Origin: an uncultured Candidatus Micrarchaeota archaeon
Lineage (GTDB): Archaea; Micrarchaeota; Micrarchaeia; Micrarchaeales; Micrarchaeaceae
Length of the DNA: 64,000 bases
Assembly (NCBI GenBank): GCA_903884115.1
Contig: CAISDH010000003.1
Location: forward strand, 330 to 64,329
Direction: 5' to 3'
Positions 6,153 to 61,159 of the stretch are shown piece after piece (the stretch's first letter is position 1; every line of letters starts with the position of its first letter). Made by a program: the position numbers and the translations under genes. Under the pieces are notes generated by a model. The model did not search any database. It was given only the letters and a program-made list of their open reading frames with translations, and had not been told where the DNA came from.

Positions 6153-7284
6153 TCATCTTCGCTTTTTTCATGGTCATGCGCAGCGCCGTGTCCAGCTTTG
6201 CCGCCTTATAGACTGCGCGAAGCCCCTTGGCGTCGCTAACTAGAACAGTATTTCTCGAGTTTGTCTGGCATACGTCCTTGTACGTGCCGATCGAGAGCTC
6301 GAAGGTGCCGATCTTCTTCGCGACGTTTACGATCTCCTGTTTGTCAAAGCCTATCAGCGGCCTCATGATGAACGGGTCTATGTTATGGGTGGTCGCATTG
6401 AGGTTCGATGCGGTCTGCGATGCCACCTGGCCGAGACTCTCGCCCGTGACTATGCATGATGCCTTCTCCTTCTTTGCGATGCCTCCCGCAAGCCTGTAGA
6501 TGAACAGCTTGAATAGCAGGTTACCGTACTTTGAGGGCGTATTCATCACAAAGGACTGGTACACATAGCCTGGAATAATGTAAGTCTCTGCCTTGCCGTA
6601 ATATTTTGACAGCGCCCCGGTCAGCTTGTCTATCTTGGACAGCCTCTCATCGTCGTTGCTCTGGAAGGCGTGCACGTGAACGTATATCGGCTCGAGGCCG
6701 CGCTTCATTGCGTAGAACGAAGCGACGGGGGAGTCTATCCCGCCGGAAAGCAGTATCACTGCCTTGCCTGAGGTGCCTACAGGGAGTCCTCCAAGCCCCA
6801 TTATTTTCTTGACGTAAAGGAATGATCCGCGGTTTGTCACGTTCACATAGAGCCTCTTCCTGGCTTTCTTGTCCATGTCAAACTTCAGCTTCTTCGCCCT
6901 GTCCAGGAGCGTGTCCACGATGTCCTTTGAAGAGAAGTTCACGCTCTTCAGGCTTCTATGCGCCACGATCCTGACGGTGGAACCGGGCTCTATTATCTCG
7001 CGTGCACACTCTACGATATCCGCTATGCTGTTCTTCGTTACCGCTACTGGCGCGAACCAGCTTATGCCGAACACGTACCCCAGCTTGCCCAGTATGGAGT
7101 GCATGTCCGATTTCTCATTAAGGTGCAGCATGAACCTGTCGCGCATGTTCTCCAGCGAGTCGTATTTCTCTTCCAAGAGCGCGTCGCGCACGTTCCTGTA
7201 GAGCGCGTTAACAAAAAACCTCCTGTTCTCGCCCTTCAGCCAGATCTCCCCGAAGTGTATAACGACTTCCTTGTAGTTGAACAC
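6136..7284 (-). CDS. thiI: tRNA 4-thiouridine synthase ThiI (THUMP + PP-loop ATPase)
   Basis: PP-loop motif LLSGGIDSPVA, N-terminal ferredoxin-like/THUMP region, length 382 aa. Confidence 0.8.
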   Translation of the reverse strand: MFNYKEVVIHFGEIWLKGENRRFFVNALYRNVRDALLEEKYDSLENMRDRFMLHLNEKSDMHSILGKLGYVFGISWFAPVAVTKNSIADIVECAREIIEPGSTVRIVAHRSLKSVNFSSKDIVDTLLDRAKKLKFDMDKKARKRLYVNVTNRGSFLYVKKIMGLGGLPVGTSGKAVILLSGGIDSPVASFYAMKRGLEPIYVHVHAFQSNDDERLSKIDKLTGALSKYYGKAETYIIPGYVYQSFVMNTPSKYGNLLFKLFIYRLAGGIAKKEKASCIVTGESLGQVASQTASNLNATTHNIDPFIMRPLIGFDKQEIVNVAKKIGTFELSIGTYKDVCQTNSRNTVLVSDAKGLRAVYKAAKLDTALRMTMKKAKMITLGQ

Positions 7285-7338
7285 GCAGTCACCTGATTAT
7301 CTTATAAACATTAACGCCAATCATTAAAGAGGATTCGT

Positions 7339-7533
7339 ATGGGCATATTGGATAAGCTTCAGCGCTTTATGTCGGATTCCAGGCACGTCCTGAGCATGAG
7401 CTATAGGCCCAGTGCAGACGAGTTCAACAAGAGCGCAAAGGTCATAATAGTGGGCATCCTTCTTGTCGGAACCCTCGGGTTCGTCATATCCTTGATAATA
7501 TCGCTGATCATGTCGGGCACGCTGCCCATCTGA
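7339..7533 (+). CDS. secE: Preprotein translocase subunit SecE / Sec61gamma
   Basis: 64-aa tail-anchored protein. The pattern RPSADEFNKSAKVIIVGILLVGTLGFVISLI matches archaeal SecE. Confidence 0.6.
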   Translation: MGILDKLQRFMSDSRHVLSMSYRPSADEFNKSAKVIIVGILLVGTLGFVISLIISLIMSGTLPI

Positions 7534-7539
7534 GATTCT

Positions 7540-8364
7540 ATGGAAGTAAGGATCGACTTCACGAAATCTGCGCAGGATAACGCGGACGAGCTCTACAAGA
7601 AGGCAAAGAAGCTTCTTGCGAAGAAGGCCGGCGCAGTCGATGCGATCAAGGAACTGCAGAAGAGGCTTGAGGCTGCGGGCGCCAAGGGAGGCGTGCGGCA
7701 GGCTCCAAAAATCCTCAAGGTTACCAAGGCAGAATGGTATGAGAAGTTCCACTGGTTCTTCACGAGCAGCGGCATGCTCGCGATAGGCGGCCGTGACGCG
7801 CAGCAGAATGAGATGCTTAACTCAAAGTACTTCGGCGAAAGCGATCTCTTCTTCCATGCGGACATATTCGGCGCTCCTGTGGTTGTCCTCAAGGACGGCG
7901 CAGCTGCGGACAGCGGCACAAAGGAGGAGGCTGCGCAGTTTGCAGCATGCTATTCCAGCGCATGGAAGCAGATGCTGGGCGCCGTGGACGTGTACGCGAT
8001 GCGAAGGGAGCAGGTCAGCAAATCAAGCGAAAAGGGCTACCTGGGCGCAGGAAGCTTCCTGCTCAAGGGCGAGCGCGAATGGCATCGGAACATGAAGCTC
8101 GAGCTCGTGGCGTTCCTGGACAACGGCAAGCTCATGATGGTCCCATCGAAAGCATTCGAGAGGATGCGCTTCGAGAAGCTGCAATACGCAAGAATAACAA
8201 TTGGCGACTCCATCAAGCACGACGCCGCAAAGAAGCTGGCGCGCATACTGGGCCATGATGGACTGGATGCGATAATGGTGAGGCTGCCTACGGGCACTTT
8301 CTCCGTAGTTGCGAGTGCAATTGCTCCGGGTTCGGCTTCTGCGGGCGCCGCTGCAAAAAGCTGA
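7540..8364 (+). CDS. NFACT-family protein, C-terminal half only (coiled coil + NFACT-R/DUF814 + NFACT-C)
   Basis: Motifs WFFTSSGMLAIGGRDAQQNEML and LFFHADIFGAPVVVLK are typical of the DUF814/NFACT-R domain of RqcH/NEMF homologs. Confidence 0.6.
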   Translation: MEVRIDFTKSAQDNADELYKKAKKLLAKKAGAVDAIKELQKRLEAAGAKGGVRQAPKILKVTKAEWYEKFHWFFTSSGMLAIGGRDAQQNEMLNSKYFGESDLFFHADIFGAPVVVLKDGAAADSGTKEEAAQFAACYSSAWKQMLGAVDVYAMRREQVSKSSEKGYLGAGSFLLKGEREWHRNMKLELVAFLDNGKLMMVPSKAFERMRFEKLQYARITIGDSIKHDAAKKLARILGHDGLDAIMVRLPTGTFSVVASAIAPGSASAGAAAKS

Positions 8365-11682: not shown

Positions 11683-11708
11683 GGAGTCACATCTGACGAA
11701 GGTAAAGG

Positions 11709-11793
11709 TGCAGGGAGAGAGATTTGAACTCTCGAACCCCTAAGGGAGCGGACTCTGAATCCGCCGCATTTGACCAAGCTTTGCGATCCCTGC
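11709..11793 (-). tRNA. tRNA-Leu (anticodon CAG), type II with long variable arm
   Basis: Manual fold: acceptor GCAGGGA/TCCCTGC, anticodon stem GCGGA/TCCGC, loop TTCAGAG, variable arm CCCT-TA-GGGG, T arm GAGAG-TTCAAAT-CTCTC. Confidence 0.85.
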
Positions 11794-15476: not shown

Positions 15477-15950
15477 CTATTCTTGCGGCAATTCTATCAA
15501 TTGCCCTTTTATATTTAGACCGGATTTAAACATCATTTCTGCTTGCTTCTGGGCTAGCTTATCATCGAAGAATCTCCGAAATGCGTCCTCGAGGTATCCT
15601 TCCATGCTGTTTTTTGCCCTCTTTCCCAACGATATTCCTCTTATCAGTTTTGCTATATTGCCATTGGCCTTTAGACTGTTCTGCATCTCCTCCCATTCAT
15701 TATCGGAGTCTGTGCGCTTCTTGCTGGCTTCCTCCATTATATTCTTATTTGAATTCTTAATCATCAGAGCATTATTGCCTGAAACGGTCGCTTCCCTGCG
15801 AACGGCGTACCAGATTGCATCTTCGAGGTTCTTCTTATTCGTAGTTCTTTCCGGCAGGCCCCTCCGCAGTTCAAGCACCGGATCTTCATGAGCGTAGTTG
15901 CTATGCATTTCACTATCTTTTCCTCTTATTTCAACTTTCCTGCATTCCAT
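15477..15950 (-). CDS. Orphan charged helical protein (157 aa)
   Basis: Long ORF preceded by conserved upstream element copy U7. No recognisable domain. Confidence 0.45.
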   Translation of the reverse strand: MECRKVEIRGKDSEMHSNYAHEDPVLELRRGLPERTTNKKNLEDAIWYAVRREATVSGNNALMIKNSNKNIMEEASKKRTDSDNEWEEMQNSLKANGNIAKLIRGISLGKRAKNSMEGYLEDAFRRFFDDKLAQKQAEMMFKSGLNIKGQLIELPQE

Positions 15951-16040
15951 AGCATCATGCTCATATATGCTTCAAATTTCCTAATACTTATACTCTCCTT
16001 TTAGTTGCAGTTTGTTTGCGGAAGTCTGTGATTTGGTAAA
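15951..16040 (-). promoter_or_regulatory. Conserved upstream element, copy U7 (TTTACCAAATCACAGACTTCCGCAAACAAACTGCAAC ... ATAAGTAT ...)
   Basis: Gene-proximal about 90 nt. The distal 37 nt is near-identical to U6 and U3. Confidence 0.6.
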
Positions 16041-16249
16041 CGGGCATATCTCATTTTAGTCCAGGTGGTCTGTTGCAAAGGAATAGCGAAAACGACAACT
16101 GGCACTAGGGCGTTTTCGTGTTCAAATCTTAGTTGCACAGCAGGTGCCTGATCTGCGCTCAGGTGATGCGCAGAGATCCTGCTGTGCTGTGTTGCCGGTA
16201 GCGGGCGCGCTGCGCCCTGGGCGTCATCTGTATATTGGCTGCTTCACTT

Positions 16250-17371
16250 TTACTTTCTGTTGAGCCTCTTTACGGCTTCCGTTGCTTTGGCTATCTTCCT
16301 GAAGCTGTCCGCCTTGGCCTGATAAGTTGCTTCGTCTGCCGTTCCTGCCCCTGCAGCTGCAGCGGCTTCGTCACACTCCTCTGCCGCTTCACGATACCTT
16401 GCAATCTGGGATAGCTGCTCAGCGGCCTTCGCGTGCTCCTCTACTGGATTCTTTCCAACATACTCTATGAGCCACTGCGCACAGAGTTGAGGCTCCCAGC
16501 CCAATGCCTTGCCTATCATATCATAAGCGCGCTTGGCTGCGTCGCCTGCTTCCTCGAACCTTTTTAATACCTCAACGACCTTCCCTGGATCGCCAGAGCA
16601 CGCACTCAAGATAGACTTCATGTCTGTTATTGTCCCTGATTTCAGCAGCCACTCCGTTGCGGATGCTTCCCATGGTACCTCTGCATCCAGGAGCGCGTTT
16701 GCAGCTTTCCTCTGGCTTGTCTTTGTTTCTATCTTGGCGTACAGCTTAGATGCCTGGTCGCGCTTCTTCTCTGCCGCGGCCATGTCTCCGTATTTCTCGC
16801 ACAGCTTCTGACTTTCGCGCTGCGTAACTTTGCGCCCTTCCGCTTCTATTGCTTTCTCAGCGCACTCTTCCGCCTCAACGAACTTCTTTTTGCTTGCGTA
16901 CTTGGATTCTGCCCACGCCCACAACTGCGCCTCGTCTTCCCCTGCATTCTTGCCCATCTTCACTGCATCGTGGAAGTTCCCGTCCAACACATACTTTTCC
17001 TTCGCAGCAATCCACGCGTCAGCCGGATTGATTCCGGATAGCTTGTCTATACGCAGCGAAGCTGACTCCTCGTGCAGTCCGTTATAGTCGAGCAGCGTGG
17101 CCGCCTGATTTATATCGCTCTCGCTTCCTGCCTTCTCTAAGCATTCAACTGCTCCTCTCCAATCGCTTTCACTCAAACACGTCTCTGCTTTGTTTCTGAG
17201 CTTGTCGGGATCAGTGGCCTCTTCTATCAATGCATTATGCTTTGCTATCTGTGCCTCCAGCTTGTCCCTGTCCTCCTGGCTTAGCACCTCAAGCACATCA
17301 GGAGTTATCTCGCTGAACGCTTCCTTCGCCTTTTCAATTGTCTTATCGTCTTTTATGGTTGCTTTCGGCAT
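16250..17371 (-). CDS. Orphan alpha-helical repeat protein (373 aa, A/E/K-rich)
   Basis: Long ORF with recurring A-x-E-C-x-E-K-A-G-like helical motifs. Preceded by element copy U5. Confidence 0.5.
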   Translation of the reverse strand: MPKATIKDDKTIEKAKEAFSEITPDVLEVLSQEDRDKLEAQIAKHNALIEEATDPDKLRNKAETCLSESDWRGAVECLEKAGSESDINQAATLLDYNGLHEESASLRIDKLSGINPADAWIAAKEKYVLDGNFHDAVKMGKNAGEDEAQLWAWAESKYASKKKFVEAEECAEKAIEAEGRKVTQRESQKLCEKYGDMAAAEKKRDQASKLYAKIETKTSQRKAANALLDAEVPWEASATEWLLKSGTITDMKSILSACSGDPGKVVEVLKRFEEAGDAAKRAYDMIGKALGWEPQLCAQWLIEYVGKNPVEEHAKAAEQLSQIARYREAAEECDEAAAAAGAGTADEATYQAKADSFRKIAKATEAVKRLNRK

Positions 17372-17459
17372 ATACTCTCCCTTTTCTCTTCCTTTTATCC
17401 AGATATATATGCTTTTCTTTTCATTACAGCTTGCTTGGTGTTGTTTGCTATTTTGTAAA
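17372..17459 (-). promoter_or_regulatory. Conserved upstream element, copy U5 (TTTACAAAATAGCAAACAAC ... AAAAGCATATATAT ...)
   Basis: Same architecture and spacing to the ATG as U1 and U2. Confidence 0.6.
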
Positions 17460-17524
17460 GGCGAGTGTTTTTTCGAGTATGCTCTGCCTCAAAGAAACAG
17501 AGAACCCAAAAGGAAATAGGGCGT

Positions 17525-18085
17525 CTACAGCGCAGAGTCCTTCCTAAGCAATTTATTTATCGAATCGGCCAGGTCTGCCTTCTCAGGCGGCTTCTCCTTC
17601 GATTCCTTAGCCTCCTTCTTTTTCTTCTTTTCTTCTTCTTTTTTCTCCTTCTTTTCCGCCTCAGCTCTCTTCTTCTCTCTCTCGGATTCCTCCTTCTTCA
17701 TCTTTGCTTCGGCTTTCTTATTTATGCCCCTCTTGAGCAGCTTATCTATGGACTCTTCTATGCTCTTATCAGTAATCGGCTTCTCCTTCTTCGCCATCGC
17801 CATTTCCTTCTTTTCCTTCGCAGCTTCATCCCTTCGTCTCTTCATCTCATTATCCGCTTCCTTCCTTTTGATCTTCTTATCCGCCTCGTCTATTTTCCTC
17901 TTCTTCTCGGCTTCCTCCTTCTTCATCTCTGCCTCCGCTTTTTTATTTATGCCCTTCTCGAGTATCCTGTTTATGGAGTCTGCTATTGCCTTATCGCTGG
18001 CGCTGGTGTCTTTATCAGTTGTTCTTAGCAACTGCATTGTTCTCGTTTGTGCCGCTACTGTTTTTTCATCAGCCATCTCATTCAC
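17525..18085 (-). CDS. Lys/Glu-rich coiled-coil protein with internal tandem repeats
   Basis: Three copies of the [DE]SI[ND][KR][LI]L motif. Two are extended by GINKKAEA[KE]MKKEE. SD AGGTGA lies directly upstream of the ATG. Confidence 0.5.
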   Translation of the reverse strand: MNEMADEKTVAAQTRTMQLLRTTDKDTSASDKAIADSINRILEKGINKKAEAEMKKEEAEKKRKIDEADKKIKRKEADNEMKRRRDEAAKEKKEMAMAKKEKPITDKSIEESIDKLLKRGINKKAEAKMKKEESEREKKRAEAEKKEKKEEEKKKKKEAKESKEKPPEKADLADSINKLLRKDSAL

Positions 18086-52550: not shown

Positions 52551-52961
52551 CTACTTGTTATCTATGGTGTGAATATCCCGTATTTTTCTGAATTCTCTGT
52601 CAAAAGTAGCGATTTCTCCTATGCTGTAACGTTTAGCCAGTGAAATAATACAGCAATCTATAAAGCTAAACTTGGGAGCATTCTGATCTTTAAACAATTT
52701 CCATGCAGCCTCAAAATCAAACTCATCTGTCTCTAAAATTGTTGTTGAATCCTTAATGTATTCTCCAACTTCTGCAGCCATGTTTACTGATTTAGTCTTG
52801 AATAGGGTTACCGTAACTGTCTCTGCAAAGATATAGTTGGATGTGCATGCTTCCCCAAAGTCGCCATTTACTATGCTGTTAATAATCCTAACCGCTTTCT
52901 CATGGTTTGTATCTTGCGCCAACGCATATGCAACAAGCACACTTGAATCTATGAGAATCAA
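52551..52961 (-). CDS. vapC: PIN-domain toxin VapC
   Basis: MILIDSSVLVAY..., conserved acidic positions, TFDREF. Confidence 0.8.
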   Translation of the reverse strand: MILIDSSVLVAYALAQDTNHEKAVRIINSIVNGDFGEACTSNYIFAETVTVTLFKTKSVNMAAEVGEYIKDSTTILETDEFDFEAAWKLFKDQNAPKFSFIDCCIISLAKRYSIGEIATFDREFRKIRDIHTIDNK

Positions 52962-52965
52962 TGCA

Positions 52966-53211
52966 TCATCTATACATTATCTTATCGATCTCTTGACTCC
53001 ATTTCACAGCATGCTTTGTTTTTATGATTCCATTCAATTTCAATAATGTCTTTATGTTGTGCTTCCCTGCTTTTTCCTTCTCCCTCATCCAGAACTCCAT
53101 GGCTTCAGTTATGGCTCTACCTACATTCATGCTCTCCTCCAATGCGCGTTGTCTGAACTTACGGTAGATTCGCGGATCTACCTTTCGCACAACCAACATC
53201 TCTCTCTGCAT
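52966..53211 (-). CDS. vapB: Antitoxin (RHH/CopG-like) partner of VapC
   Basis: 81-aa ORF 4 nt upstream of the PIN gene. VVRKVDPRIYRKFRQRALEESMNVGRAITEAMEFW is RHH-like. Confidence 0.6.
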   Translation of the reverse strand: MQREMLVVRKVDPRIYRKFRQRALEESMNVGRAITEAMEFWMREKEKAGKHNIKTLLKLNGIIKTKHAVKWSQEIDKIMYR

Positions 53212-53256: not shown

Positions 53257-55539
53257 CTAAATAACATCTATAGACTCTGCGCGGATATGCAGGTTTATTG
53301 CCGGGCATGCTTTTATTTTGAATTCTCCAATTATGTGCTCTTTTCTGTCTAGAAGTTGGAGTGTGTACTTAGAACCCTCTATGAGTTCTTGCATTATCGT
53401 GCCTGAACCGCTTATGGCGTGCGTGGAAATGTCTTCACCAAGATATCTGAACCTTATATAATGGGTATTCTGCTGCAGCTTGCTTGCTTCGCCGACAATG
53501 TCTAGAAATATGCTAAATCTTGTGTTGATGACTGCTGGCAAGCATAGGCCTCTCTTATGGATATAGGCGTCCAATGCATTCATGTAACTGTCTGTTTTGT
53601 CAGCATATTCCGCAGTCCTTATGAATACGGTGTCTTGAGCCAGTTTCTCGTCATCATTTTTCAGAACGTAGCTGAAAGCGCATATCCGAGAGTCCAGAAG
53701 CTTAAGCTTAAGCACGATGTCCTCCTCACAGGCGTATGTGAACACAAGATCCTTTGCTGCAACCGCAGCAACGTCCGGTGCCTGCTTCAGATACAGCTTT
53801 ATCTGGCACAGTCTGCGCACTCCTTGCTCTATGTCGCTGATGGTGTGCGCCAGAAGCATGAGCCCGATGCCCTGTTTCCTGAAATCCTGGATGCGTTGCC
53901 TAAGGTCCTGTATCGCCGCTGATTCTTTGTTGCCAAATACGGTCTGCGCTTCCTCTAGGCATATGAGAAGCCTTAGTTCATCATCGCCGTCAGTGTCAAA
54001 CCCTGCCGCAAGCGCGTATGCCTGATTCAGCAACAGCGCGTAGAGATACGGCCTCTTCTCACTGCTTACGCCCGATACATCGAATACTGCCCCTCTCCCT
54101 GCAAGTTCCTCTATCCTTATGCCTTCACTCATAGAATATTCTGGCTTGTTGAGTATTGCACGCAGGTTCTCCAATGCCGACCTTATGTTTTCGCCATGCT
54201 TGGTATATTTTACACCTGCGTTTGTCTTCTTTGCATGGAACCTTATTATCGATTCTTCTATTGCATCGTATGTGCTGATTGGATCGGGTGTATCTGTTTC
54301 AGAATAGACTCTCCTGAACGCGTTCAGCAAGCAGTGTTCCAAAGGATTCTGATATGGCCCTGCATTAGATGCGCTCGCAAGCACAAGGGCAAGGCTCTCG
54401 TAGAATTTTTCCTTCTGAATTGTTGTTGGGCACCTGAAGAGGTTAATTGGGACCTTGTCCACGTAAGGCCTTATCAGATGCATTCCATGGGCAATGGCAA
54501 AGCGGTTCCACTCGTCAGTAGGTGCAATTACAATAATGCGCACGCCATACGCACCTGCCTTAACTGCGTCAATTATTGCCATTGCCTCTTTGGTCTTGCC
54601 GCTGCCTGGCAAGCCAGTTATGATGAAACCAAGATTCATTGTAGATGGATCTATCCTTACGGCATGGTCTGTTTCTGCAACTCCGTTTTTCATGAACGTG
54701 CCTATTGTTATGCCTTTTTTTGTGCTTTGGGAGATGGTGGGCAGAACATAGTTGAGTTTGTAAGATCCGTAAAAATTCATAAAGTCCTTTAGATAATCTG
54801 TGCCGAGAGGGAATGCCCTCTCGTTATGGAGCTCGACCAGTTGCTCTGCAAGGCTGGACCTGCATTTAGACTCATTAAGCAACATAAATCTTGTTGCAAT
54901 GTACTCCTGTAAACGGGCACCTGCATTTGGTATGATGAAAAACTGCTTGTAGGTGAGGTTGTTACTCAGTATTGCGTTGTTTATCGAAGCCAGCACGCTG
55001 TTAAATAGGGCAGTCTCCTCGGATTCCATGAATAACTCTCGCTGTGTAGATGAGCTTGCCTTCTTGCTGAATACCTCAGTTATTGCAGAGCGCGTCTCCC
55101 TGATGTCTTTCCTACTGAGTGCTCTTTCCACATAAGATTTTGAATGTTCCAGATCTGTCTCGCTTGCTGGAATGAATGCCACTGCAACAAACCCTGTACC
55201 AAGTGCTAGATCGAAAATGTCGTGCATGTGGTGCGGGCGATGCACTTCTGGATTATCCGCTCTTTCGGGTCTCTTGTAACATGAGAGTACCTTCATGTCG
55301 ATGGCTGCGTTCAGTGCCGTGCATTCTGCGGCCTCGAATCCAATTCCAGGTATTGCCTGCATTATGCCTTCTATCTTCCCTTCTGCGATGCTAGTATCCA
55401 TACACAAGAAGGTGGTTTTCTGATCAAGATCGTATACAAGTAGAAACTCGTTTCTTCCCATGATCTCGAAGAATGCGACAGCGTCCAACTCCTTATTTGG
55501 CAACTCTGTTGTTCTAAACGAGCCAAACTTCACATTCAT
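53257..55539 (-). CDS. FtsK/HerA-superfamily P-loop ATPase (HerA/TraG-like, DUF87-type), 760 aa
   Basis: Walker A GLPGSGKT and Walker B LLICLEEAQ, with no TM segments. It is the last gene of the 9-gene operon, ATGA-coupled to the preceding gene. Confidence 0.7.
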   Translation of the reverse strand: MNVKFGSFRTTELPNKELDAVAFFEIMGRNEFLLVYDLDQKTTFLCMDTSIAEGKIEGIMQAIPGIGFEAAECTALNAAIDMKVLSCYKRPERADNPEVHRPHHMHDIFDLALGTGFVAVAFIPASETDLEHSKSYVERALSRKDIRETRSAITEVFSKKASSSTQRELFMESEETALFNSVLASINNAILSNNLTYKQFFIIPNAGARLQEYIATRFMLLNESKCRSSLAEQLVELHNERAFPLGTDYLKDFMNFYGSYKLNYVLPTISQSTKKGITIGTFMKNGVAETDHAVRIDPSTMNLGFIITGLPGSGKTKEAMAIIDAVKAGAYGVRIIVIAPTDEWNRFAIAHGMHLIRPYVDKVPINLFRCPTTIQKEKFYESLALVLASASNAGPYQNPLEHCLLNAFRRVYSETDTPDPISTYDAIEESIIRFHAKKTNAGVKYTKHGENIRSALENLRAILNKPEYSMSEGIRIEELAGRGAVFDVSGVSSEKRPYLYALLLNQAYALAAGFDTDGDDELRLLICLEEAQTVFGNKESAAIQDLRQRIQDFRKQGIGLMLLAHTISDIEQGVRRLCQIKLYLKQAPDVAAVAAKDLVFTYACEEDIVLKLKLLDSRICAFSYVLKNDDEKLAQDTVFIRTAEYADKTDSYMNALDAYIHKRGLCLPAVINTRFSIFLDIVGEASKLQQNTHYIRFRYLGEDISTHAISGSGTIMQELIEGSKYTLQLLDRKEHIIGEFKIKACPAINLHIRAESIDVI

Positions 55540-55844
55540 ATAATCACGTGTATCAGTGCAAGAGACAGAAGCATGCTGGAAAGTAACTTCAGCATGAGCG
55601 TTCTAGGTACGCTGGCTCTGTGCTTGACAACATATGCAAGGACCATGCAGAAGCCGGCAGGCAATGCCAGGTAAAGCACTCCTAGTTGCAAGGTGTATAG
55701 CGGCGCGGCCATTTCTTCGATGCCAAGGAGTGTGGCAAATATTGCAAACGCTCCTGCAAGGGAGGCAAAAAATACCTCAAATGCGTTGGATTTGCGATAG
55801 AACGTTCTTATGTTTTCAAGCGTATACTCACCTGAAATACACAA
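55536..55844 (-). CDS. Small membrane protein (3 TM), operon member
   Basis: 102 aa, hydrophobic, overlaps both neighbours. Confidence 0.45.
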   Translation of the reverse strand: MCISGEYTLENIRTFYRKSNAFEVFFASLAGAFAIFATLLGIEEMAAPLYTLQLGVLYLALPAGFCMVLAYVVKHRASVPRTLMLKLLSSMLLSLALIHVII

Positions 55845-56013
55845 TGGCCGAAACGAAAGCCAGGAGCAATGCGCCTATCACGGCGTCTTTTCCAACTGTG
55901 CGCATGCCGTAATTCTCTCCGCTGCTGCCCAACAATATGAGAAGCATGCCAGTGTTCAATACAGCAAGGCACACTGCAAGCCCAATTCGTGCAAAGTATC
56001 TTTCAATCAACAT
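55828..56013 (-). CDS. Small membrane protein (2 TM), operon member
   Basis: I chose the start at 56013 (MLIERYF...), which overlaps the upstream stop as ATGTTGA. The track ORF extends to 56064. Confidence 0.4.
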   Translation of the reverse strand: MLIERYFARIGLAVCLAVLNTGMLLILLGSSGENYGMRTVGKDAVIGALLLAFVSAIVYFR

Positions 56014-57023
56014 CCAATCACACTCAATAACCCACTGAGCTCGTTGAAGAGCAAAAACGCGCACGAACTGGAGCTCCTTTCCAGAAGGGCTCGGATGGCT
56101 CTTTCCTCACCGCGTGCAGATACTGCTATGCTTACGCGATTCGAGCCATAAATCCCGCGCGCCGGGCCAGAATACATCTCAACGAAGTGAGCAATGCCAT
56201 TGGATTTTAAGAACGAGGATATGGACATACCGTCCTTCAGCGCATAGGATCCGGTGTTCATCGCAGTCTCGTAGAGTCTCTTTGCAGCTATTTCATGATA
56301 CGGCATTGCGCCTCTACAAAGCACACCATAATATGCGTCTGTGCAAACAGAGTTGACTGATTCCTTAATGCTGGCTGGGTTCCGATGGCTTGAAAGCTCA
56401 TACAAAGCAGCGGATACCTCCTCCACACTTACGGGCATTGTCTTCACCATGCGCATGCGAGCGTTTCGCCTGTGCAGTTGTGCTGCGGTATCGAGCACCA
56501 GTTTCTTGTCTAGTGTAGTGCAGTTGTCTTTCAGTTCGCTGTCAAATATGACTGTAATCTCTTTGTTTGAGGTGCTGCGCTCTGAGAGCATCCTGATGGA
56601 AACATAGAATGCCGCTCCAACCGGCAGAAGTGCAAGACTGAGATAGTTGCCGAAATAGTAGAGCAAATAATCTGCCATGCTACCTTCATATTTCATTGAT
56701 ATTGTATTCTTGCCTAAGGAGAACGGTGCGTACATGTTCAGTGCGCCGGTATAGTTAGTTGAGATGTTTGCGACGTATTCATTGTTCAGCACAATATCGA
56801 CAATCCTATTGCGTAGAGCTGAACCGTTGTAGTACAGGTACGCCACAATGTGGTTTCCATTGGATTCAATGGCATGCAGGCAAAGACCTTTGCACGTCTC
56901 AGCAGCGGAAATGTGCAATAGCGGCATGGAGAAAATCATAGCCAGAATCGTGCTGGTCAAGAGCAGGGTAGGTGTGCCTATCAATACATCACTTCTTTTC
57001 GGCCAGCAATGACGCAACTGCAT
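56007..57023 (-). CDS. Bitopic membrane protein: signal/anchor + extracellular domain + TM + cytoplasmic domain, operon member
   Basis: N-terminal KR-rich region then a hydrophobic region (VLIGTPTLLLTSTILAMIFSMPLL). Second TM YLSLALLPVGAAFYVSIRML. Confidence 0.5.
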   Translation of the reverse strand: MQLRHCWPKRSDVLIGTPTLLLTSTILAMIFSMPLLHISAAETCKGLCLHAIESNGNHIVAYLYYNGSALRNRIVDIVLNNEYVANISTNYTGALNMYAPFSLGKNTISMKYEGSMADYLLYYFGNYLSLALLPVGAAFYVSIRMLSERSTSNKEITVIFDSELKDNCTTLDKKLVLDTAAQLHRRNARMRMVKTMPVSVEEVSAALYELSSHRNPASIKESVNSVCTDAYYGVLCRGAMPYHEIAAKRLYETAMNTGSYALKDGMSISSFLKSNGIAHFVEMYSGPARGIYGSNRVSIAVSARGEERAIRALLERSSSSCAFLLFNELSGLLSVIGC

Positions 57024-57633
57024 TTATCTCCGCATTGTCAACGCCAAGGGAATGCAGTACTGCATGCCGTCCTGCCTCGCCCGTTCCGTTCATAAGAGCC
57101 GCCTTGTCCAGAATTTCAGCGCAGAACCCTCCGTATGCCTGCACTTTCTTCTCCAGCTCTTTATTTTCTCTTGAGAGCAAGACGAACTCGTGTGATATCG
57201 CTGCATTGGCGTTACTCAACGCATATATGCGCTGGTTCAACACATCATCGTATGGCCTGTCTTCAATTACGGAGAATGACCAGCTGTTGCGCAGCGCCTC
57301 TATGACATAACCGTAGACTCCTGTAAAGTCGATTGAATAGGACGCATCGAGATATGTAAGAATTGAAAGAAATCTGAGCAGATTGGTCGTGTATTCCCTG
57401 CGGTCAGGCTTCAAAAAGAAGAACCTAAGCGATATCGAATCTCTGTACAGCTCCAAAAGAGGATCGTTGCCCTTATTTGACGCATCAACAATAGCATATA
57501 CCAGCCTAGTTCCTGAAGAGTGCAGTCTTAGGCATTTGAAAGAGCTTAACGAACATCTCACTGCGGCCATATTGGCTTTTAGCCGCGTGTGCACGTGAAA
57601 ACATGAACTCAGCAATTGTTTATTGTACTGCAC
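56989..57633 (-). CDS. Soluble orphan protein (214 aa), operon member
   Basis: ORF overlapping both neighbours. No recognisable motif. Confidence 0.45.
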   Translation of the reverse strand: MQYNKQLLSSCFHVHTRLKANMAAVRCSLSSFKCLRLHSSGTRLVYAIVDASNKGNDPLLELYRDSISLRFFFLKPDRREYTTNLLRFLSILTYLDASYSIDFTGVYGYVIEALRNSWSFSVIEDRPYDDVLNQRIYALSNANAAISHEFVLLSRENKELEKKVQAYGGFCAEILDKAALMNGTGEAGRHAVLHSLGVDNAEINAVASLLAEKK

Positions 57634-58717
57634 GCTCGTACACCTCAGCTATTGTGACATCGCTTGTGCCAAGCGCTCTTAGATACGGCACTATGTCTTG
57701 TCTATGCAATCCAATTCCTAACAGGAACCTTACAAAGGCAGTCGCTTCAAGCTCCCTATCCTTGCTGCCTGCGTAGTTCTCTATCTTCTGCCATACGTCC
57801 GAGCCGGCAAAATGCCTCTCTGTGATTTTTTGGAAATCAACTCCAGCTATTTTCAGATGCATTGCATCACATCGTATACCGTAAACCCTAGTGTCAATGC
57901 CCTCTATGCGCTCTATAAAAAATCTCATGTGTTCCCTTGTTTCCCTTGTTGCCATAGAGAGCATGCATGAGCCCTGATGCAGTTGCAAGATGCTACGCTT
58001 CTCGCATTCTCCGATCATCCCAATATCCAGCAGAAATGCATAATCTGCGCTGTTCTGTAACCTGAAAAGCACAGTGCACGCGGCATTTGAGAGCACCTCC
58101 TTGTTCACATCGCTTGTCAGCTGCGTGGCCGTGACGATTCCGATCCCGTACTTTCTGCCTTCCCTGAACAATGCCCCGATATCGCCCGCGCTTTCGATGA
58201 AGCGCCACGCCTCATCGAGCACCACAATACGCCCAAGGTCCTTTTCTAGGCGCATCCTGTGCATATCGTCGATCAGCATGTCCAGCAAGCGTGCAGCAGT
58301 GCGTTTCCTTTCAGTATCGCTTTTAAGTGCCGACAGGTCTATGCTTGAGACCGAATCTGAAGCAATGGCTTCGAAGGACGTTTCCGCTGCAGTGGAATCC
58401 GCGACCGCCCCGCCAAGGAAGGATACAACATTGCCATACTCTCCGTTCCAATCGAGTACCAATACCTTAGTGTTGCAGCACAGCACATTTCTTGCTATCA
58501 GACTCTTCAGGAAGTAGGTCTTGCCCGCGCCTGACATGCCAAGCACTGCAATATGTGGGTTCAGTAGCTTGTGTACATTCAAGAAGAACGGTGTGCGATA
58601 TACTTTTGTCCTGCCTAGATAGACTCCAGAGCCATCTTCGAGCGAAGGCTCTGACATGCCATCCATGCACATCATCGTGCTCGCGTACTTTGCATTGGAG
58701 TTGATTCCTGTCAGCAT
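57620..58717 (-). CDS. VirB4/TrbE/CedB-like ATPase domain protein (365 aa)
   Basis: Walker A LGMSGAGKT, Walker B IVVLDEAW (the DEAW signature of VirB4-type ATPases) and GIGIVTATQ. Confidence 0.7.
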   Translation of the reverse strand: MLTGINSNAKYASTMMCMDGMSEPSLEDGSGVYLGRTKVYRTPFFLNVHKLLNPHIAVLGMSGAGKTYFLKSLIARNVLCCNTKVLVLDWNGEYGNVVSFLGGAVADSTAAETSFEAIASDSVSSIDLSALKSDTERKRTAARLLDMLIDDMHRMRLEKDLGRIVVLDEAWRFIESAGDIGALFREGRKYGIGIVTATQLTSDVNKEVLSNAACTVLFRLQNSADYAFLLDIGMIGECEKRSILQLHQGSCMLSMATRETREHMRFFIERIEGIDTRVYGIRCDAMHLKIAGVDFQKITERHFAGSDVWQKIENYAGSKDRELEATAFVRFLLGIGLHRQDIVPYLRALGTSDVTIAEVYERAVQ

Positions 58718-59445
58718 TCTATCAGCGTTGAGTCGAGTTCTAAGACGGTAGTAAGTTCATTGCCGGAAAGAGGCACGGGTTCTGCGCCAAGAAGTGCACC
58801 GAACCTGCCGGAAAGCTCCTTGATCTGTGATAGTGCGCGCTCAGAAGCGGTGAACTTGTTCTCCGACAGCGCGCTTGTCATGATATACTGGCGAAGTCTC
58901 ATTGGCGCGCTCGCGCTCAGTGCCGAAATCTCCTTCTCAAGTTCCGCAGTCTCCCTTTTCAGCGCATCGATCTTTGCGGTGTTCTTCTTCTCCGATGACG
59001 TGCTAAGTTTTGAAATTTCCAGGCGCTTCATGCTCATCTTGGTTTGCATCGCGTCGAGAAGCTTCTTTGCGCTCAGCCGTTCTACCTGAAGCACAAATTT
59101 GAAGGGAGCCCTGGTCTGCTGTATGATGCTTTCAAGCCGCTCAAGGTCCATGCCTTGCTTTGCGCTGGTTGTCAGCAATGCCGCTGCAGTCGCACTGAAC
59201 GTGCCATTTATCTTTCTTACTGCTGCTTCCCTTGCACTGCTCAGTTCGTACCCGTTGAATAGCTCAACTAAGCGTGTATGCTTGAATATAGCGGCTTCTA
59301 TGACATACCAGAGCCTGTAAAGCAGCGCAGTCACGAGTATTGTGCCGATGCTTGCGGCTATGAGTAGCATATTCATTGTGGCTATGCTTGCAAATGTGAT
59401 TATAGTTGCGAGCGCAAGCAGTGTTATGAACTTCCAGTCCTCCAT
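58711..59445 (-). CDS. Membrane protein with 2 N-terminal TM helices + coiled coil (possible VirB3/VirB4-N-like part of a split VirB4)
   Basis: TM helices ITLLALATIITFASIATMNMLLIAASIGTILVTALL, then a long helical region. It overlaps the ATPase gene by 7 nt. Confidence 0.45.
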   Translation of the reverse strand: MEDWKFITLLALATIITFASIATMNMLLIAASIGTILVTALLYRLWYVIEAAIFKHTRLVELFNGYELSSAREAAVRKINGTFSATAAALLTTSAKQGMDLERLESIIQQTRAPFKFVLQVERLSAKKLLDAMQTKMSMKRLEISKLSTSSEKKNTAKIDALKRETAELEKEISALSASAPMRLRQYIMTSALSENKFTASERALSQIKELSGRFGALLGAEPVPLSGNELTTVLELDSTLIEC

Positions 59446-59449
59446 ACAC

Positions 59450-60487
59450 TCACATTATATAGAGCCTTCCGAAGCTAATCTCCGAGCCCAGAACCCTTGC
59501 AAGCTCCCTTATTGAGATTGCAGTAAGTATCAGTCCCAATGCCGGTAGAAAGAATACCTGTATGACTATCTGTGCAATGAGATTCAGAAGTTGCTTGGCT
59601 GTGCCCTCAAGCGAATTCACCACATTGCCGAGAATGGCTGCAACTCCTGTACTGTTAGTGGTATTGAGATTCGACGCGCTGCTAACCAACCCATCTGCAA
59701 TGCTGCTAGTACTGAGTTCAAATGTGCTTATTGTCGTGCTGTTCAAGGCGCTGGTATATCCTGAAACAAGCTCCGCGTTGAGCACATATGTCAATGGCAG
59801 CACTGCGAAGAGCCCGATGGCGATCGCCATTATTGCGCCGCCCAGCCTTCTTGTGATATAGGTGATGCGAAGTATTATCCCAACGGGAAGGAGTATCTGC
59901 ACTGCAGTGAGGGCGACGAACTTGAGCAGAATCCCCTGAGCCTCAATGCTGACTATCGATGCTCCAAGAGCACCCATCACGTATCCAAGCTGGCTCAACA
60001 CAGGGTCGATCATACCTCCGAGACTGACACCGATAAGTCCGCTGCCTAGCTTAACTGCTCCTATGAGGCCCAAACCAACATACACTGAAACGATGCCTGC
60101 AAGCGTGCCGAAAGCGGTTTCTATAAGAGGCAGGTATGCAACGCCATTTATGCTCACTTGGCTGGTCCCTGCTAGATAGTTGTATGCAAAGCACAGAGCA
60201 TAATTACTGCTCATGAAGCCTTGGCATGTCGCAGACAACTGAACGCTTGATGTGATGCTGTTGATGATCATTGTAATGAAGCCATTACTGCTAAACGCGA
60301 AGATCAGGAGCCCAACAATCGCACCGTTAATCAATGCCTGCTGCAGCTCGGATCTTCCGAACTCTTTCAACCTCTTGTCCTCTGTGGCGAAGCCTATGCC
60401 TAAGACGATGCCCGATACGGAGAGCATCATTGCGACAAGGTCGATTGCAATATTATAGGTGCCGATATATGCAGACACCAAATTCAC
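59450..60487 (-). CDS. Polytopic membrane protein (6-7 TM), VirB6/TrbL/CedA-like
   Basis: 345 aa with G/A/I/L-rich helices and an S/T/N-rich extracellular loop near the C terminus. Confidence 0.5.
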   Translation of the reverse strand: MNLVSAYIGTYNIAIDLVAMMLSVSGIVLGIGFATEDKRLKEFGRSELQQALINGAIVGLLIFAFSSNGFITMIINSITSSVQLSATCQGFMSSNYALCFAYNYLAGTSQVSINGVAYLPLIETAFGTLAGIVSVYVGLGLIGAVKLGSGLIGVSLGGMIDPVLSQLGYVMGALGASIVSIEAQGILLKFVALTAVQILLPVGIILRITYITRRLGGAIMAIAIGLFAVLPLTYVLNAELVSGYTSALNSTTISTFELSTSSIADGLVSSASNLNTTNSTGVAAILGNVVNSLEGTAKQLLNLIAQIVIQVFFLPALGLILTAISIRELARVLGSEISFGRLYIM

Positions 60488-60488
60488 C

Positions 60489-60860
60489 TCAAATAGTGTT
60501 AACGGCTGTGAAGTTGCTCAAAAGCTGAGTTGATGCTACTGCTAGTGAAGTAGACGCCACGCTAAGAGCGCCGACCACGATGGCTCCTATTATTATATTT
60601 ATTGCGGCAGTGTGAAAGTTAGCCTTCTTGTCAGGAGGCAGCATCTGGCCCACAGCATAGAATATGCCTGCAAGTACGAACAGCACCGCGCTGAGTGCGG
60701 GTCCTATCTGCATGAGCACGAGCTTTATGCTGTCGAGCTCTGTAACAAGCTGTGACGCCGCATACATGCTTCTTGAGAACATCAGAAGCACGAAGAGCGG
60801 TACGGTTATGTATTTTGCAAACCTCAACAACCTCTGCGCTTCGAGAATTGGGCTATCCAT
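60489..60860 (-). CDS. VirB2/TrbC/CedA1-like pilin candidate (123 aa)
   Basis: Signal-anchor ending SMYAAS, then hydrophobic helix IGPALSAVLFVLAGIFYAVGQ, basic loop PPDKKANFH and second helix AAINIIIGAIVVGALSVA. Confidence 0.5.
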   Translation of the reverse strand: MDSPILEAQRLLRFAKYITVPLFVLLMFSRSMYAASQLVTELDSIKLVLMQIGPALSAVLFVLAGIFYAVGQMLPPDKKANFHTAAINIIIGAIVVGALSVASTSLAVASTQLLSNFTAVNTI

Positions 60861-61159
60861 TCAACTACCTATACTTTTACTCAAGTATATGAATGTATAG
60901 TTATTTAAGTATTTGTATACCTATCATAGTGATGTAAATTTGTGTTGGAAATGACGTATCTCTAACTCGTCTACGATAAATCTACGACAATGCGAAATAG
61001 GTCATCTTGCCCTTACGAAATCTGAATCTTCTCGATATTCTTGTCTGATTGTGCCATTACGTAGCTGTATCTGTAATAGATGGACTAAGTACTGAGCTGT
61101 CGAGAGAAGGTTGAAGAAAAAGCATAAATATTAAGAACGACGCCATACTGTACGGATGG

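Follow-up and report, generated by a model that had tools for sequence, protein, structure and literature searches.

It is not settled how DPANN archaea are supplied with the compounds that their reduced genomes leave them unable to make, or by what means they and their hosts exchange genes, and in Micrarchaeota no molecular machine has been assigned to these exchanges. The present study concerns a stretch of 64,000 nucleotides (hereafter the window; GenBank contig CAISDH010000003.1) from the chromosome of an uncultured archaeon of the Micrarchaeota (DPANN), in which nine co-directional minus-strand genes at positions 53257-60860 form a single operon. A preliminary description, made from the sequence alone, had likened this block to a conjugation apparatus and to the Ced and Ted DNA-transfer machines. 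What is such an apparatus doing on the chromosome of a DPANN archaeon, does it belong to the cell or to a mobile element, and what might it carry? We conclude that the block is probably a chromosomally domesticated, minimal machine of the Ced/Ted-like type IV secretion system (T4SS) kind, representing a family of its own that is spread across Micrarchaeota, and we propose the operon as a concrete, phylum-conserved candidate for the exchange machine. Full-text searches turned up no account of a system of this kind in either Micrarchaeota or the rest of DPANN, in agreement with the earlier statement that it had not been characterised in this kind of lineage.

Operon structure

The nine open reading frames (ORFs), designated g1 to g9 in the order of transcription, were all found at the coordinates and lengths originally given (123, 345, 244, 365, 214, 338, 78, 102 and 760 aa). 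Adjacent genes are separated by anything from a 4-nt gap to a 35-nt overlap, as had been described, with the exception of the g6/g7 junction, where the ORF starts as listed produce an overlap of 58 nt, a value that hangs on the choice of start codon. A hydropathy scan reproduced the topologies that had been described: hydrophobic segments number three in g1 (a signal peptide and two transmembrane (TM) helices), seven in g2, two each in g3, g6 and g7, three in g8 and a single weak one in g9, while g4 and g5 have none; six of the nine products are membrane proteins. All nine ORFs are genuine genes under purifying selection, because the same genes occur in identical order in two relatives (loci L088 and L001, whose g4 proteins are 84% and 80% identical to that of the window) and because dN/dS calculated against these relatives is 0.10-0.36 for every gene, the small g7 and g8 included.

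A VirB2/TrbC-type pilin

The first gene of the operon, g1 (60489..60860, minus strand), encodes the pilin precursor. In its product a signal peptide, with an A-x-A-like site for cleavage, precedes two hydrophobic helices; these are linked through a basic loop, PPDKKANFH, and the C-terminus bears an N-x-S/T sequon. The dN/dS of g1 is 0.10. The earlier identification of this protein as a pilin, made from its architecture, is borne out by profile comparisons across the family: 14 of 24 members match Pfam T4SS_pilin (PF18895) and 11 match TrbC/VirB2 (PF04956), with a best E-value of 1e-6, and the window's own g1 matches T4SS_pilin at E 1.2e-5 (25.8 bits; cut-off 26.6). When the family profile was compared with the PDB, the sole match below E=1 was TrwL, the VirB2 pilin of R388 (E 0.0034); against the full TrwL precursor the profile scores 23.3 bits, covering residues 17-90 of 101. 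On these matches g1 is a VirB2/TrbC-type pilin, its family membership being of borderline but repeated significance. The C-terminal sequon is kept in all 16 g1 sequences of the window's clade (clade A), as expected for a surface-exposed, glycosylated filament subunit.

The pilins of a second Micrarchaeota clade (L032, L062, L065 and L084; for example L065 3054-3296) are only about 80 aa long and have no signal peptide, so that both export styles exist within one phylum; among the known archaeal machines, CedA1 is reported to lack a signal peptide and TedC to have a cleavable one (PMC9905601). An N-terminal kinship of g1 and g2, as reported for CedA1 and CedA, was sought by hhalign, and the result was non-significant (E 0.032, prob 1.6%); the aligned segment consists of the analogous first TM helix and basic loop.

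A probable split VirB4-like motor

The fourth gene, g4 (57620..58717, minus strand), encodes an ATPase domain of the HerA-FtsK superfamily with neither TM segment nor N-terminal domain, and the Walker A (GMSGAGKT) and Walker B (VVLDEAW) motifs quoted for it earlier are present. Its Pfam matches are DUF87 (1.9e-15) and AAA_10 (5.7e-13). Across the g4 family the best NCBIfam E-values are obtained with CedB (4e-32), CD1110 VirB4 (1.6e-26) and CedD (1e-23), VirB4-type models match 27-29 of the 29 members, and the HerA repair helicase models (1e-13 to 1e-15) are the weakest among the superfamily matches. By hhalign the family matches the VirB4 family of archaeal conjugative plasmids, represented by an alignment of eight VirB4/TrbE-like proteins from PLSDB records (including those of pNOB8 and pT33-3), with prob 99.6 and E 9e-24. 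These comparisons assign g4 to the VirB4/CedB class of ATPases, homologous to VirB4 of archaeal conjugative plasmids, in keeping with the class first proposed for it. In the PDB, HerA-type proteins match at 7e-23 to 5e-20 and VirB4 (4ag5) at 4.6e-15; since HerA-type scores lie near those of VirB4, g4 is placed at the level of superfamily and class, within a HerA-VirB4 continuum, and not as an orthologue. CedB and CedD have been placed in the same continuum (PMC11868833). Moreover, g4 scores 64.4 bits against a CedB cut-off of 700 and 61 bits against a CedD cut-off of 600, far under these equivalog thresholds, which marks it as a relative of both and an orthologue of neither. The expectation that the ATPases would side with secretion proteins over HerA is upheld for g4 by the profile scores, in which the CedB and VirB4 models rank above HerA repair helicases; in the PDB, HerA-type proteins rank slightly above VirB4.

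Immediately upstream, and overlapping g4 by 7 nt, lies g3 (58711..59445, minus strand), whose product is predicted to consist of a TM hairpin followed by a cytoplasmic alpha/beta domain. In the AlphaFold2 (AF2) model, built from 20 fairly close sequences (predicted local distance difference test (pLDDT) 75.5), helices at residues 3-23 and 26-57 precede a beta/alpha domain with a helical hairpin, and a Foldseek search of 350,542 PDB chains with this model placed TrwK, the VirB4 of R388, in all of the top 13 positions (best E 0.022, prob up to 0.99). Sequence comparisons gave no significant match, whether with Pfam, with hmmsearch against TrwK, PrgJ, PrgI and TrwM, or with hhalign against TrwK, pNOB8 VirB4 and the eight-member plasmid VirB4 alignment. 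The g3 family comprises 165 representatives in 1.84 billion proteins, the full-length members being nearly all 224-283 aa long (one has 317 aa), and no fusion to an ATPase domain was found among the 165.

The model supports an interpretation of g3 as a part resembling the VirB4 N-domain joined to a membrane anchor, and the position of the TM hairpin immediately 5' of the ATPase gene would also fit VirB3. Together, g3 and g4 look like a split VirB4, the anchor and N-domain being encoded by the first gene and the ATPase by the second. This is the best reading of the pair because a single protein fills the top of the g3 fold list and because the two genes overlap; the same N-domain logic has been described for CedB and CedD (PMC11868833). 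A split VirB3/VirB4 had been suggested in the preliminary description, and of that suggestion the structural comparison speaks in favour, while the sequence and profile tests remain non-significant.

The polytopic protein g2

Between pilin and motor lies g2 (59450..60487, minus strand), which appears by hydropathy and in its AF2 model to be an all-helical polytopic membrane protein with about seven TM helices. The model (pLDDT 85.4) has long helices throughout and a small beta insertion. No significant structural match was returned by Foldseek against the PDB, in which TrwI/VirB6 of R388 (7o3v_J) ranked fifth with E 0.57 and prob 0.51, or against BFVD; Pfam searches of 34 family members and two PDB profile searches gave no sequence match, and hhalign against TrwI and PrgH gave nothing significant. 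In 37-49 loci g2 stands directly 3' of the pilin gene and 5' of g3. As no method provides g2 with a significant relative, the VirB6-like role attributed to it earlier is a matter of topology and gene position, on which the attribution agrees, and not of homology; we regard g2 as a candidate translocation channel in the position of VirB6, CedA or TedA.

Two loci (L042 1136-9885 and L051 1032-9885) carry five to six tandem paralogues of the 7-TM protein g2, one 374-aa form of which was pulled into the iterated hidden Markov model (HMM) search for g1; in the same loci two tandem copies of g3 precede the ATPase.

Distribution across Micrarchaeota

Homologues of g2, g3 and g4 come almost exclusively from metagenome-assembled genomes of Micrarchaeota. 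Scanning one genome per GTDB species for relatives of g4 yielded at least 366 loci, and the 80 that were kept are nearly all labelled Micrarchaeota or one of its subgroups, a few being labelled only 'archaeon' or 'Candidatus ainarchaeum'. ORFs were called in 84 loci, and an iterated HMM was run for each of the nine proteins. All 84 loci contain g4, with g3 in 81, g5 in 80, g2 in 49 and g1 in 37; the remaining genes are less frequent (g9 in 17, g6 in 10, g7 in 4 and g8 in 2). The order g3-g4-g5 is syntenic in about 80 of these 84 loci, which come from different species. If detected, g1 and g2 as a rule immediately precede g3, and g6 and g9 lie downstream, g9 following g5 in 17 loci of the window's clade. 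The genes conserved widely as a unit are g1-g5; the window's clade has g9 in addition, and g6-g8 occur in near relatives only. Conservation of the block as a unit, on which the first interpretation leaned, thus holds widely for five genes and only among near relatives for the three accessories.

A neighbour-joining (NJ) tree, which covers the Micrarchaeota g4 family only, has at least three clades. In the window's clade, characterized by a short g4, a pilin with a signal peptide, and g6 and g9 either present or not, the triad g3-g4-g5 is always preceded by the pilin and the 7-TM protein. Pilins of 80 aa without a signal peptide characterize the second clade. The third, a large one, combines a long g4 with the lack of an adjacent pilin or g2, which indicates that the engine may also work without a pilus. 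Clades two and three can occur together within one genome (OY970229.1, loci L036 and L058). Three loci that branch early within the pilin-less clade (L042, L051 and L077) carry g1- or g2-like genes, suggesting that pilin and g2 are ancestral.

An example of the pilin-less triad, standing immediately behind the gene for adenylosuccinate lyase (purB; PDB match, E 4e-101), is L043 (7686-8996), with equivalents in L056, L057, L068, L072 and L076. In four loci (L041, L047, L053 and L067) g3 is split from g4 by 2.5-5 kb of other genes, and the pairs g2-g3 and g4-g5 stay adjacent. In the cultured micrarchaeon Microcaldus ARM-1 (L090 9992-11682, read set DRR248898; BCS91020.1 = ARM1_0477) a tandem pair of g3 paralogues is present, but neither g4 nor g5 could be recognised within 10 kb, so that any ATPase partner would lie elsewhere. 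One remote g3 member (P0403, MEM4368413.1) carries the label Candidatus Aenigmatarchaeota, and two g2 homologues that of Marsarchaeota; either these are mis-binned or the family reaches other archaeal lineages.

The second ATPase, g5 and the accessory proteins

The last gene of the operon, g9 (53257..55539, minus strand), encodes a second ATPase, with the motifs GLPGSGKT and LLICLEEAQ as previously noted. An N-terminal region of about 240 aa is followed by a g4-like P-loop domain with an insertion of about 100 aa and by a C-terminal region of about 120-160 aa; there is no N-terminal TM anchor, and by hydropathy the protein is essentially soluble. The g9 and g4 families align by hhalign over 336 columns that span all of g4 (prob 97.9, E 4e-13), and g9 also matches archaeal plasmid VirB4 (prob 96.3, E 2e-9). 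Among the 17 family members, CedD is matched by eight (best 3.3e-10; VirB4_plasma, CD1110 and CedB match as well) and the Pfam domains HerA_C and DUF87 by nine; the g9 protein itself scores 21.6 bits against CedD. These alignments make g9 a paralogue of g4, with CedD as its closest counterpart. TraD/TrwB-type models match only marginally (TrwB_AAD_bind at E 0.043; SXT_TraD in 2 of 17 members). A role for g9 as a TraG/VirD4 coupling protein appears unlikely in view of the marginal model matches, the lack of an N-terminal TM segment and the paralogy to g4. The protein is a second ATPase of the same superfamily, as had been supposed, although it looks CedD-like and not TraG-like.

The soluble g5 (56989..57633, minus strand), formerly counted among five orphans, belongs to a family in which a coiled coil is followed by a C-terminal winged-helix domain. 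The family profile matches the winged-helix structure 2xvc (E 2e-4), archaeal HTH regulators and coiled coils, and in Pfam 7 of 23 members match EAP30, with TrmB, PCI, HTH_IclR and MarR matching too. It is possible that g5 serves as an adaptor for the substrate (DNA) or for a partner.

The three remaining products appear to be lineage-restricted membrane accessories. The orphan status first given to g6 (56007..57023, minus strand; predicted TM segments at residues 13-31 and 128-146, bitopic or 2-TM) stands in the libraries searched, as it has no match in Pfam, NCBIfam, PHROG or the PDB; its homologues always follow g5, and its dN/dS is 0.17-0.25. The small 2-TM protein g7 (55828..56064, minus strand; a shorter start is possible) is conserved in L001, L002, L010, L016 and L088 (dN/dS 0.22-0.26), and the 3-TM protein g8 (55536..55844, minus strand) in the nearest relatives only (dN/dS 0.28-0.36).

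Alternative explanations

It could be argued that the block is the remnant or cargo of an integrated conjugative plasmid or integrative and conjugative element (ICE), and that it moves or once moved that element: conjugative plasmids of Sulfolobales and Thermococcus encode VirB4-like ATPases homologous to g4 and g9; the operon is bordered, in the window as in its relatives, by toxin-antitoxin modules of the sort often found where mobile DNA ends; and close relatives differ in their upstream flank. Within flanks of about 7 kb, however, there is no integrase, relaxase or replication gene, in line with the preliminary description, and no partition gene; nor does any relaxase domain occur in the block or its flanks. 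The composition of the operon is native (GC 0.482 against 0.50 for the window), and its tetranucleotide distance is unremarkable (+1.35 SD, 7 of 57 windows deviating as much). The nearest relative, L088, has the same downstream flank, PIN-RtcB-PmbA/TldD, all nine genes are under purifying selection, and hundreds of Micrarchaeota species carry the core, its pattern of occurrence following clades. The closest relatives in 72,556 plasmids have 25-38% identity over part of the protein, and those in the 2.9 million viral contigs of IMG/VR 21-36%; on present evidence a plasmid or viral origin was rejected, for want of close relatives in either. A mobile element is a highly unlikely owner; the block is host-owned and vertically inherited, and chromosomally fixed, as had been surmised from its setting. 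Nor does a HerA-type machine unrelated to secretion, working in HerA-NurA-like end resection and repair or in HerA-based anti-phage defence, account well for the operon. The best PDB matches of the g4 profile are indeed HerA of defence systems and Sulfolobus HerA, the top NCBIfam match of the window's own g4 is HerA_antiphage, and PADLOC HerA models match g4 (up to 1.7e-20), with mad8 matching both g4 and g9. These matches are nevertheless limited to the shared P-loop domain and fall far under every family cut-off, and g4, which begins about 50 residues before its Walker A motif, leaves no room for a HAS-barrel N-domain. Furthermore, the block has no NurA, Sir2, DUF4297 or other nuclease or effector partner: NurA, Mre11 and Rad50 have no match in the nine proteins or the flanks, and PADLOC effector models (Sir2, DUF4297, nuclease) have none among the other seven operon proteins. 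(The model of PADLOC JetC gave a single weak coiled-coil match to g3, E 0.006.) The operon's products include six membrane proteins, among them a T4SS pilin, CedB and VirB4 profiles beat those of HerA repair helicases across the g4 family, and the near-universal synteny is unlike that of patchy defence islands. HerA-NurA repair and HerA defence were both set aside on gene context, and we hold a machine of this type to be very unlikely.

A further explanation, also unlikely, is that g3-g4-g5 form a membrane-anchored translocase for the cell's own chromosome, acting in FtsK-like division or segregation, with the pilin-like and polytopic proteins as mere accessories. Such a role would suit the large clade in which the triad occurs without pilin or g2, the weak resemblance of the g5-family winged helix to ESCRT-type winged helices (2xvc, EAP30), and the near-universal presence of the triad in a phylum of very small genomes. 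It is conceivable because of the clade without an adjacent pilin, but it misfits the window's clade, where a VirB2/TrbC-type pilin and a 7-TM protein invariably precede the triad; L042, L051 and L077 retain g1- or g2-like genes, suggesting their ancestral presence, FtsK-family profiles score far below CedB and VirB4, and the conserved C-terminal N-glycosylation sequons of the pilins fit a surface-exposed filament subunit. The T4SS-type reading has difficulties of its own. The window's g1 falls 0.8 bits short of the Pfam T4SS_pilin cut-off; the fold matches of g3 to VirB4 have E-values of just 0.02-0.3, none individually significant, and come from a model of pLDDT 75, and the comparison of g3 with VirB4 N-terminal domains by profile was non-significant; HerA-type proteins outscore VirB4 for g4 in PDB sequence space; and g2 shows no detectable homology to VirB6, TrbL or PrgH by sequence, profile or fold. 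Equivalents of VirB8, VirB1 and VirD4 were not recognised in the block, the third g4 clade has neither pilin nor g2 beside its long g4 (several of its loci lie right after purB), and the sole evidence touching the cargo is the winged helix of g5.

Comparison with known systems

One close parallel is the Ced system (CedA, CedA1, CedB and CedD) of Sulfolobales and Desulfurococcales, for which DNA import has been shown (PMC9905601, PMC11868833). Like the block, Ced is chromosomal and relaxase-less, and includes a two-helix VirB2-like pilin, a membrane protein with 6-7 TM helices, and an ATPase of the HerA/VirB4 class that has a membrane anchor and a part resembling the VirB4 N-terminal domain. 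It also has a second, paralogous ATPase, CedD, corresponding to g9, so that the CedB/CedD pair described in PMC11868833 is mirrored by g4/g9, and no NCBIfam models match the g4 and g9 families better than those of CedB and CedD. The differences are that anchor/N-domain (g3) and ATPase (g4) are separate polypeptides here, that, unlike CedA1, the pilins of the window's clade carry a signal peptide that can be cleaved off, that g5-g8 are without Ced counterparts, and that the lineage is DPANN and not Thermoproteota. The Ted system of Thermoproteales (PMC9905601), compared here by its description, is likewise a domesticated T4SS: its VirB2-like pilin, TedC, bears a signal peptide, TedA is VirB6-like and TedB VirB4-like, and the Ted components too are recognisable only by sensitive or structural methods; TedB, however, is a single-chain VirB4, and Ted loci contain ParA/VirC1-like, Rad50 and HerA genes, none of which is found in the block.

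Among bacteria, the T4SS of Patescibacteria, or the candidate phyla radiation (CPR), resembles the block in being the chromosomal, phylum-wide and mostly relaxase-less possession of ultra-small episymbionts, with pilins of the same Pfam family, PF18895 (PMC12102498; PMC12857230), and it is reported to be essential for the epibiotic growth of a saccharibacterium (PMC12857230). The CPR systems have a fuller set of the mating-pair formation type FATA (MPF-FATA; VirB1, B3, B4, B6, B8 and a VirD4-like protein), whereas in the archaeal block the recognisable components are the pilin, the split VirB4-like pair and the second ATPase, and its ATPases are nearer to CedB and CedD. Archaeal conjugative plasmids (the pNOB8 family and pT33-3) share with the block two DUF87 ATPases together with membrane proteins; the ATPase domains of g4 and g9 are clearly homologous to their VirB4/TrbE-like proteins, and the VirB4-like gene of pT33-3 is required for conjugation (PMC12857230). 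Their ATPases are single chains of 620-670 aa, in contrast to the split pair, and the block is chromosomal, without genes for an integrase or ParAB; besides the ATPases, no operon gene matched any of the 13 pNOB8 proteins compared. The order pilin, polytopic protein, TM protein and ATPase is that of PrgH (VirB6), PrgI (VirB3) and PrgJ (VirB4) in pCF10.

In the literature, the nearest item from DPANN is a VirB4/TraG-like domain in giant SPEARE-type proteins of nanohaloarchaea. The 2025 review of T4SS nomenclature (PMC12857230) includes neither DPANN nor Ced, its archaeal section dealing with conjugative plasmids such as pNOB8 and pT33-3.

Proposed working and significance

The identities of g1, g4 and g9 are shown and that of g3 is supported; by analogy with the homologous systems, from which a pilus and its assembly, g2 as a channel, the cargo and the direction of its transport are inferred, the machine could work as follows. 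The pilin g1 would be exported, lose its signal peptide to signal peptidase I and stay in the membrane as a hairpin of two helices, while g3 would anchor the ring of g4 ATPases to the membrane, the pair doing the job of VirB3-VirB4 or of CedB. ATP hydrolysis would then pull pilin out of the membrane and polymerise it into a conjugative-type pilus on or through the g2 channel, after which the same assembly of ATPase and channel would carry a macromolecule across the membrane. Recruiting or feeding the substrate may fall to g9 and g5, and g6-g8 may act as lineage-specific accessories of the envelope or membrane.

Since there is no relaxase or mobile-element gene and inheritance is vertical, the machine is probably not a mover of plasmids. 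The cargo is more likely to be chromosomal DNA or another macromolecule, passed between the micrarchaeon and its host or its own kind, with DNA as the leading, though tentative, guess. A more doubtful proposal, if an attractive one, is that the operon is a symbiont-side apparatus for exchanging cytoplasmic material (DNA, proteins, lipids, metabolites) with host archaea, and so a counterpart of the essential T4SS of Patescibacteria. Cryo-electron tomography of a co-culture of Microcaldus ARM-1 and Metallosphaera has revealed intercellular nanotubes, a 21-nm docking barrel and thin filaments on ARM-1, the components of which were stated to be unknown (PMC11329633). It is speculative that the operon might contribute to the thin filaments and the docking barrel, since the ATPase was not found beside the ARM-1 g3 paralogues, and we do not claim a full system for ARM-1.

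If the exchange proposal is true, a T4SS that has a pilin but no relaxase has been kept independently, as an organelle of their lifestyle, by ultra-small episymbionts in both domains of prokaryotes. The operon would extend the theme of domesticated T4SS (Ced, Ted) from hyperthermophilic Thermoproteota to DPANN, in parallel to the T4SS of CPR, and for the evolution of T4SS it would offer separate genes for the VirB4 anchor/N-domain and the ATPase, pilins with and without signal peptides, and a clade of motors without an adjacent pilin. Because Micrarchaeota can now be cultivated with their hosts, the prediction is testable.

Flanking genes and other features of the window

The operon is flanked by genes for RtcB, NUDIX, EamA, PmbA/TldD, a PIN toxin, radical SAM/B12-binding and Maf proteins, among which are the three housekeeping neighbours (RtcB, Maf and radical SAM) already pointed out. 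Upstream of g1, and divergent from the radical SAM gene, lies an AT-rich intergenic region of 299 bp (60861..61159, minus strand), which presumably contains the operon's promoter; the stop codon of g9 is followed by a stretch of oligo-T.

A VapBC-like toxin-antitoxin pair stands immediately 3' of g9 (52551-53211, minus strand). In every close relative toxin-antitoxin modules border the operon, and their type differs: L001 has VapBC and PIN_2/RHH modules (7116-7759 and 15531-16162), and L088 has an AbiEii gene, with an unannotated ORF upstream, and a PIN gene (6397-7706 and 15769-16158). This variation between relatives suggests that the borders of the operon are insertion hot spots.

Elsewhere in the window, ARAGORN identified an 87-nt tRNA-Leu (CAG) at 11707-11793 (minus strand), for which the Rfam tRNA model is silent at its gathering threshold. 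Both GC and AT skew are strongest in the window at 16250-18085 (minus strand; AT skew -0.40), coinciding there with two Lys/Glu-rich, low-complexity minus-strand proteins of 373 and 186 aa.

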